From the NCBI GenBank assembly GCA_964016885.1, contig OZ024741.1, positions 129,952,001 to 130,016,000 on the forward strand: a stretch of 64,000 nt of DNA, written 5' to 3'. This document shows, one piece after another, positions 23,266-23,545 of this stretch. The notes beneath the pieces are model-generated. The model had not been told where the DNA came from, searched no databases, and saw only the letters and a program-made list of their open reading frames with translations. A program made the position numbers and the translations under genes. Origin of the DNA: Eledone cirrhosa (lineage: Eukaryota). The stretch's first letter is position 1; every line of letters begins with the position of its first letter.

Positions 23266-23513
23266 ACTAAAGGTGGAAAACTGGGAGAGGGCACTTGCCT
23301 TGGTGGTCAGGGTCATTGTGGCTTTTTACTGGGCTTTCTCCACAAATGTCCCTCCGAAGTCTCCCCCCTATTGGGGAATTTTTCATTGTTATTTTTTGTT
23401 ACATCCTCTGTTTTTGTTTTTTACACGCAGAAATGCCCATTTGTACCGTCCTGCATTGTCCTGCACTGTCCTTAATGTCTACTTTATGTAAACCCTTGTG
23501 GTTAATAAAGAAA

Positions 23514-23545
<32 letters not shown>

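Follow-up and report, generated by a model that had tools for sequence, protein, structure and literature searches.

A predicted 5' splice site over the ORF1 stop of Tx1-like LINEs in Eledone cirrhosa, with a candidate acceptor behind ORF2 in one subfamily

The stretch of Eledone cirrhosa DNA analysed here (64,000 nucleotides, called the window below) contains several copies of two-ORF LINEs in which the end of ORF1 coincides with a strong match to the splice donor consensus. Judged from its letters, this motif appears to be a selected 5' splice site, present beyond what chance would give. It is a sturdier finding than the candidate 3' splice site located behind ORF2, which is restricted to one subfamily. 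The first-pass annotation of the window had proposed that the two sites are joined, so that ORF2 is skipped and an ORF1-only mRNA results. This interpretation is partly supported by our analysis, which neither shows nor refutes it. The features of the window are:

1..1730, + strand: element A, 3' part of a further family, with a U-rich tract, a weak TAG at 1647 and then (ATCT)n
17540..23545, + strand: element B, full-length Tx1-like LINE copy flanked by (ATT)n runs
17756..19810, + strand: ORF1 of B, a frameshifted copy with CCHC knuckle, low-complexity linker and C-terminal domain of ~100 aa
19804..19812, + strand: donor consensus of B, spanning the ORF1 stop; putative intron start at 19807, phase 2
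19808-19810, + strand: TAA stop of B ORF1, inside the donor motif
19813..19845, + strand: inter-ORF spacer of B, pyrimidine-rich
19846..23265, + strand: ORF2 of B, with APE endonuclease, reverse transcriptase and zf-RVT
23378..23422, + strand: U-rich tract in the 3' UTR of B, common to D, E, C and A
23423..23431, + strand: candidate 3' splice site of B, AG at 23429-23430; in B, D and E only
23431..23515, + strand: would-be terminal exon of B, with a 19-codon tail, TAA at 23489-23491, then (ATT)n
23442 and 23487 (TGTA), 23504-23509 (AATAAA), + strand: 3'-end motifs of B
23546..29199, + strand: element C, diverged family member directly after the (ATT)n of B
25648..25658, + strand: donor consensus of C at the ORF1 end; putative intron start at 25651, phase 1; 9/11 consensus matches
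38644-39400: piece F, decayed copy
47178..52797, + strand: element D, with an ORF1 unlike that of B, ORF2 and 3' UTR as in B (95%)
49063 (donor, phase 2) and AG ending at 52675 (acceptor), + strand: sites of D
60910..61074, - strand: fragment E, 3' end of the B/D subfamily; acceptor AG ending at 61003

ORF2 shows the Pfam domains PF03372 (1.6e-14), PF00078 (4.4e-26) and PF13966 (1.6e-08), which stand for the APE, RT and zinc finger parts. Among solved structures the best match was L1 ORF2p (E 9e-41, residues 5-696), and R2 was matched over the RT portion only (E 5.5e-21), so that ORF2 is closer to L1 than to R2. The ORF1 of B, C and D carries a CCHC knuckle of the pattern C-x2-C-x4-H-x4-C. The Pfam search of ORF1 returned no family above the cut-off, and one ORF1 relative, P0006, resembles zf-CCHC / RBD_ZCCHC3 clusters at 0.88-0.91. 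A separate ORF1 with a CCHC knuckle and an RRM-like part is characteristic of the L1 group and its Tx1 clade and was found here. All three full-length copies of the window (B, C and D) start right behind (ATT)n and end in (ATT)n. The runs are located at 17516-17539, 23516-23545, 47155-47177 and 52762-52797, and each element begins at the boundary ATT/G. This placement resembles the targeting of microsatellites described for Kibi and Koshi. Since L1-Tx1 is, in the accessible text of one study, the sole L1-group LINE among the recently active families of Octopus vulgaris (PMC13282606), and microsatellite targeting is described as typical of Tx1 (PMC4494074), the elements are likely Tx1-like two-ORF LINEs, a label taken from domains, targets and comparison rather than from an RT tree. 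With the Tx1 microsatellite LINEs they share the two ORFs, the APE-RT-zinc finger ORF2, the CCHC ORF1 and the embedding of the copies in a single microsatellite type. They differ in the apparent target, which is (ATT)n here, compared to (TC)n for Kibi, (TTC)n for Koshi and (TTCC)n/(TTTC)n for crocodilian Tx1 (PMC4494074). Element A ends in (ATCT)n, unlike B, C and D. Copy-specific lesions of B are indels near 18246 and 18609 and a stop at 22003-22005.

Splice sites were scored with an approximate metazoan weight matrix. On this scale the donor at the ORF1 end is the best of 313 GT sites in B and of 282 in C, and shares the first place among 271 in D. The chance of such a donor, given the TAA stop, is 8e-4 for B, 4e-4 for D and 1.7e-3 for C. 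It stands at the end of the structural ORF, as in copia-type elements. The donor has phase 2 in B and D. In C it has phase 1; there the TAA within the motif is out of frame and the in-frame stop follows one codon later, with the motif itself perfect. Because the donor is retained despite this difference in phase, it seems to be kept as letters and not as residues, which points to a constraint at the RNA level.

The ORF1 C-terminal domain of ~100 residues (19460-19807, 25350-25655 and 48767-49063) corresponds to no Pfam family. A profile of it gave 22 protein matches, and the named ORF1 relatives belong to Octopus vulgaris, O. sinensis, O. bimaculoides and Argonauta. The end motifs were counted in 21 of the 22 matches, an ankyrin protein (P0002) being left out. 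G[KE] occurs within the final five residues of 5/21 relatives (0.6 expected). Two of the five were discounted, P0004 since its tail matches antisense ORF2 and P0014 since it ends short of the homologous place, which leaves 3/21. Four further relatives (P0005, P0007, P0016 and P0017) have G at the aligned place, and one of them continues G-E through a spacer resembling that of C. At the protein level, at which codons are not given, the ends of the relatives are compatible with a G/GTRAG donor in both its GTAAG and GTGAG forms.

Matches to the C-terminal domain were observed in octopod plus unnamed records only. A search with the ORF1 C terminus confirmed 0 of 36 candidates, and one with the ORF1 of C yielded 1 of 153, an O. 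vulgaris protein. In runs with 11 different organism labels, words of the B ORF1 are present at 0.2-0.74, suggesting a family common to many related species, or one that moved between them. In metagenome, GTDB and viral contigs a 23-nt pattern from the 3' UTR had no matches, and the ORF2 C-terminal protein gave no confirmed loci from 49, 21 and 0 pattern hits, respectively. Two element motifs had 0 matches in 4 of the 8 supplementary files of PMC9115989, a study of an RTE element whose main text, as far as it is accessible, mentions neither splicing nor Tx1.

The donor also marks a boundary between modules. In bins of 100 nt, B and D are 49-61% identical over the six that precede 19807, and identity reaches 97% in the bin that follows. 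Given this jump, different ORF1s appear to be joined to one ORF2 at the donor, and 19807 / 49063 is the apparent B/D recombination point. Summed contig depth in the contig set X1 steps from ~1.4e5 to 6.4e5 at the donor position, a pattern expected if this ORF2 is combined with several types of ORF1.

The candidate acceptor AG ends at 23430 in B and at 52675 in D, as annotated before, and scores highest of 436 AG sites in B and of 375 in D. The fragment with its AG ending at 61003 indeed keeps CACGCAG; it lies on the minus strand (60910-61074), which had gone unstated. When the whole 3' UTR was shuffled 5000 times, an equally strong acceptor arose in 3.5% of cases. With the U-rich tract fixed and the rest shuffled (again 5000 times), the value was 15.8% for B and 16.5% for D. 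The 3' ends of B and D are 87-100% identical per 100 nt, and B and E show 81% identity on the exon side of the acceptor. Owing to this shared 3' end, the acceptors of B, D and E are to be read as one lineage and count as a single observation, and the earlier caveat that B and D are not independent was justified. The same applies to the caveat on C, in which no AG occurs from 29013 to AATAAA, nor in the last 150 nt. Element A has a single weak TAG (score 3.2) and piece F a weak CAG (score 2.8). Across the family, a strong acceptor behind ORF2 is found in B, D and E only, with none in C and a weak one in A. C and A are each represented by one decayed copy, from which an AG may have been lost. 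The elements B, D, C and A have in common the U-rich tract, the TGTA motifs and AATAAA/AATACA, but not the strong AG. Poly(A) signals usually combine a U-rich tract with TGTA and AATAAA. The description of the acceptor as strong is borne out by its top rank in B and D and weakened by its origin in one lineage and by the 16% of shuffles that equal it given the tract. Folding of the 3' UTR gave unremarkable stability (z -0.20, 1.35 and -0.82).

Joining the two sites of B in phase 2 drops the stop together with ORF2 and adds R plus a 19-residue tail that ends with the TAA at 23489-23491, before the AATAAA at 23504; this part of the first-pass annotation was reproduced. The tail differs between B and D in 2 of 19 residues, and its frame is broken in E by the loss of 1 nt.

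Parts of the B ORF1 region are present in 20 of 24 listed sequencing runs, none of them recorded as RNA. Four contig sets were aligned to B at 80% likeness; contigs drop minor forms, and the tissue is not given. The junction 19806-23431 is absent among the 15 of 2031 joints listed (depths 31.8 to 145), and a loose end at 23431 is absent among the 22 of 4451 loose ends listed. In X7, contig 18 (1412 nt, depth 77.7) spans 18466-19872 and is unspliced across the donor, and contigs of X5 bridge both donor and acceptor unspliced. Depth in X7 on the intron side of the acceptor (23391-23416) is 6.8-8.2 thousand, no lower than beyond it, contig depth being a poor measure. Reads were cut from 23503 on, and the exon side is short. 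X21 covers only 2 of 30 bins, too few to inform. The contig data bound a dominant splice only. Depth in X7 climbs ~sixfold over the last 400 nt, which is not the case in X1 under the same organism label, and from this 3' rise X7 may be RNA-derived. At 23200-23515 the ~sixfold depth rise of X7 is accompanied by loose ends before 23199. Perhaps an abundant sequence carries the last 300 nt of the LINE only, either a host 3' UTR or a non-autonomous element.

At the protein level, the tail was found in none of the 22 ORF1 relatives, and a search in the tail frame among proteins of 71-2000 aa, a weak test, gave no candidate. An ORF2-less copy was found neither in the 64-kb window nor among the listed joints of X1 or X5. 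L1 proteins act with cis preference, and an RNA that carries ORF1 only provides no reverse transcriptase in cis. For this reason the missing ORF2-less DNA copies are weak evidence. Five matches lie on contigs of 2209-2281 nt, as long as an ORF1-only RNA would be. They were rejected as evidence of splicing, because P0007 continues through the spacer and P0010 stops at the unspliced stop. Breaks of the assembly at the shared ORF2 account equally well for contigs of this length. A joint at 18480-18725 with GT..AG ends (depth 67.4), seen in X7 only, was also rejected. Both of its sites score far below zero in B, and a joint lacking GT..AG has equal depth, so that a diverged ORF1 relative is the likely source.

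With somewhat less than even confidence, we propose that the donor is a U1 site which mainly guards the two-gene RNA, with splicing confined to a minority. The donor over the ORF1 stop would bind the U1 snRNP, and the bound U1 would protect the RNA from premature cleavage at the poly(A) hexamers that lie in the A-rich terminal part of ORF1. The AG at 23430 would be a chance addition, in one subfamily, to a U-rich tract that presumably serves as a poly(A) element. Donor and AG would be joined in a minority of transcripts only, with removal of ORF2 as a minor side product at most. This role is favoured because the donor is family-wide and the acceptor occurs in one subfamily, a pattern best fitted by a job that needs no splice partner. 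U1 at the 5' splice site of the Arabidopsis EVD retroelement represses premature termination (PMC5580714), and L1 RNA carries functional premature polyadenylation signals (PMC5860796). Hexamers of the form A[AT]TAAA were found at 19477 and 19619 in B, at 25334, 25356 and 25577 in C and at 48572 and 48784 in D, 70-330 nt upstream of each donor. Against this reading, the hexamers may be chance occurrences in a region of 33-39% A and may not be in use. Protection by U1 works best on downstream signals, although upstream protection has been reported for HIV-1, and ORF2 contains no hexamer in B and one in C. Furthermore, when a Pol II transcript carries both a strong donor and its best acceptor, some splicing between them is normally expected.

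The reading closest to the first-pass annotation, in which donor and 3' UTR acceptor form a selected pair, is a lesser possibility. ORF2 (3624 nt in B) would be spliced out to give an ORF1-only mRNA of ~2.35 kb, a product which would escape long-3'-UTR decay and raise ORF1p or damp transposition. It would explain why both sites rank first in B and D (tied for the D donor) and why their join removes the stop and ends 19 codons on, just ahead of AATAAA. In the same direction, E retains the acceptor 7-mer, A and F have weaker YAGs in or behind the U-rich tract (3.2 and 2.8), and ORF2-less DNA copies are not expected under cis preference. Drosophila copia likewise removes all of pol to produce Gag (PMC5580714). 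The copia parallel drawn earlier is sound in this respect, but it is weakened since ORF1 here has its own stop, and the need behind copia splicing, where gag and pol form one frame, is absent. The acceptor belongs to one lineage, with a 16% chance given the tract, and C combines the strongest donor with a 3' tract devoid of AG. The 19806-23431 joint is missing among the 15 of 2031 listed and the intron-side depth in X7 is undiminished. The tail was found neither in the 22 ORF1 relatives nor by the tail-frame search; B and D disagree in 2 of its 19 residues, and E has its frame broken. Of the claim that ORF2 is removed as one intron, the two top-ranked sites remain, and neither the joint, among those listed, nor a tail protein was seen in what is a weak test. 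An extended form of the idea is in our view a lesser possibility of about the same weight: octopod Tx1 LINEs would treat ORF2 as a regulated intron, the family-wide donor being joined in the germline to an acceptor behind ORF2, and ORF1 would be an exon-like module swapped at the donor.

It is unlikely that both motifs are incidental, with the donor-like 7-mer being a stop context or a signal for reinitiation at ORF2, spread by ORF1 swapping, and the AG due to chance. The TAA does sit within the motif, no splice product was seen in the contig sets, and B and D recombined exactly here, so that their sharing of the motif is partly descent. However, the motif of C is perfect though its TAA is not the in-frame stop, the donor is first (tied in D) of ~300 GT sites per element, and the ends of the relatives fit both the GTAAG and the GTGAG form. 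Even less probable is a joining of the donor to an AG just inside ORF2, by which a mini-intron of 52-53 nt would be removed and an ORF1-ORF2 fusion would serve as the route of ORF2 expression. In-frame YAGs at 19859 (B), 49114 (D) and 25703 (C) would give introns of 53, 52 and 53 nt, respectively, and the spacer is pyrimidine-rich. These AGs, however, come from conserved ORF2 codons, and with both phases on offer an in-frame one is expected; the AG at 19859 scores -2.5, and the intron would be very short. The Octopus sinensis protein P0006 (XP_036364761.1, 623 aa, intact ORF1) ends in 18 residues which faintly resemble the ORF2 N terminus without the spacer. This likeness was reached in 7 of 1000 shuffles, for 1 of 21 tails tested, but it has a tblastn E of 0.63, is absent in BLASTP and is not significant after 21 tests. 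Under cis preference the genome would be filled with spacer-less copies, yet depth in X1 is 122,750 at 19838. No spacer gap occurs among the 12 of 115 gaps or the 15 of 2031 joints listed, no full fusion is found among the 22 profile matches, and ORF2 keeps its own ATG in B, C and D.

In the general view of LINEs, a single unspliced RNA gives rise to both proteins, and splice sites are a burden. The retention of a donor at the ORF1 stop by diverged families would mean that the elements use the host U1 machinery on purpose, either as a U1 site guarding the full-length RNA, as we favour, or for switching ORF2 off by splicing. If ORF2 skipping were true, a LINE would have arrived on its own at a two-RNA strategy like that of copia. 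Since the copies are apparently very many, their strong donor, acceptor and poly(A) signal could also act on host transcripts; summed contig depth in X1 is >1e5, which is not a copy number.

Splicing of L1 RNA, ORF1-only HAL1 families and subgenomic RNAs of the copia type are already known. As in copia and EVD, the structural gene of the elements described here ends at a donor, and the copia intron covers all of pol (PMC5580714). Copia and EVD are single-ORF LTR elements that depend on splicing to produce Gag by itself, with spliced RNA shown (PMC5580714), whereas no spliced RNA was seen here and ORF1 has its own stop. Human L1 and the SpIREs also have donors, acceptors and premature poly(A) signals in a bicistronic LINE RNA, but the SpIRE splices run within the 5' UTR or from the 5' UTR to ORF1 and keep ORF2 (PMC5860796). 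SpIREs are dead-end copies and amount to ~2% of full-length L1; none described in the accessible text drops ORF2 from the ORF1 stop (PMC5860796). HAL1 consists of ORF1 only and a LINE 3' end, as a retroposed splice product would look (PMC5753468). HAL1 forms genomic families (PMC5753468), in contrast to the lack of ORF2-less copies in the window or among the listed X1 joints. The literature search, with most subscription papers and Repbase reports outside its scope, returned no LINE with a conserved donor over the ORF1 stop, and within the same scope no LINE that removes ORF2 as an intron and no ORF1-only spliced LINE RNA.

Two further structures were observed in the window. At 4450-16550 there is a 12-kb array of ~128-nt units with a higher-order pattern of 255-256 nt. 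Nested long inverted repeats (265 nt at 98% and 349 nt at 94%) are located at 55869-57967 and are MITE- or foldback-like.
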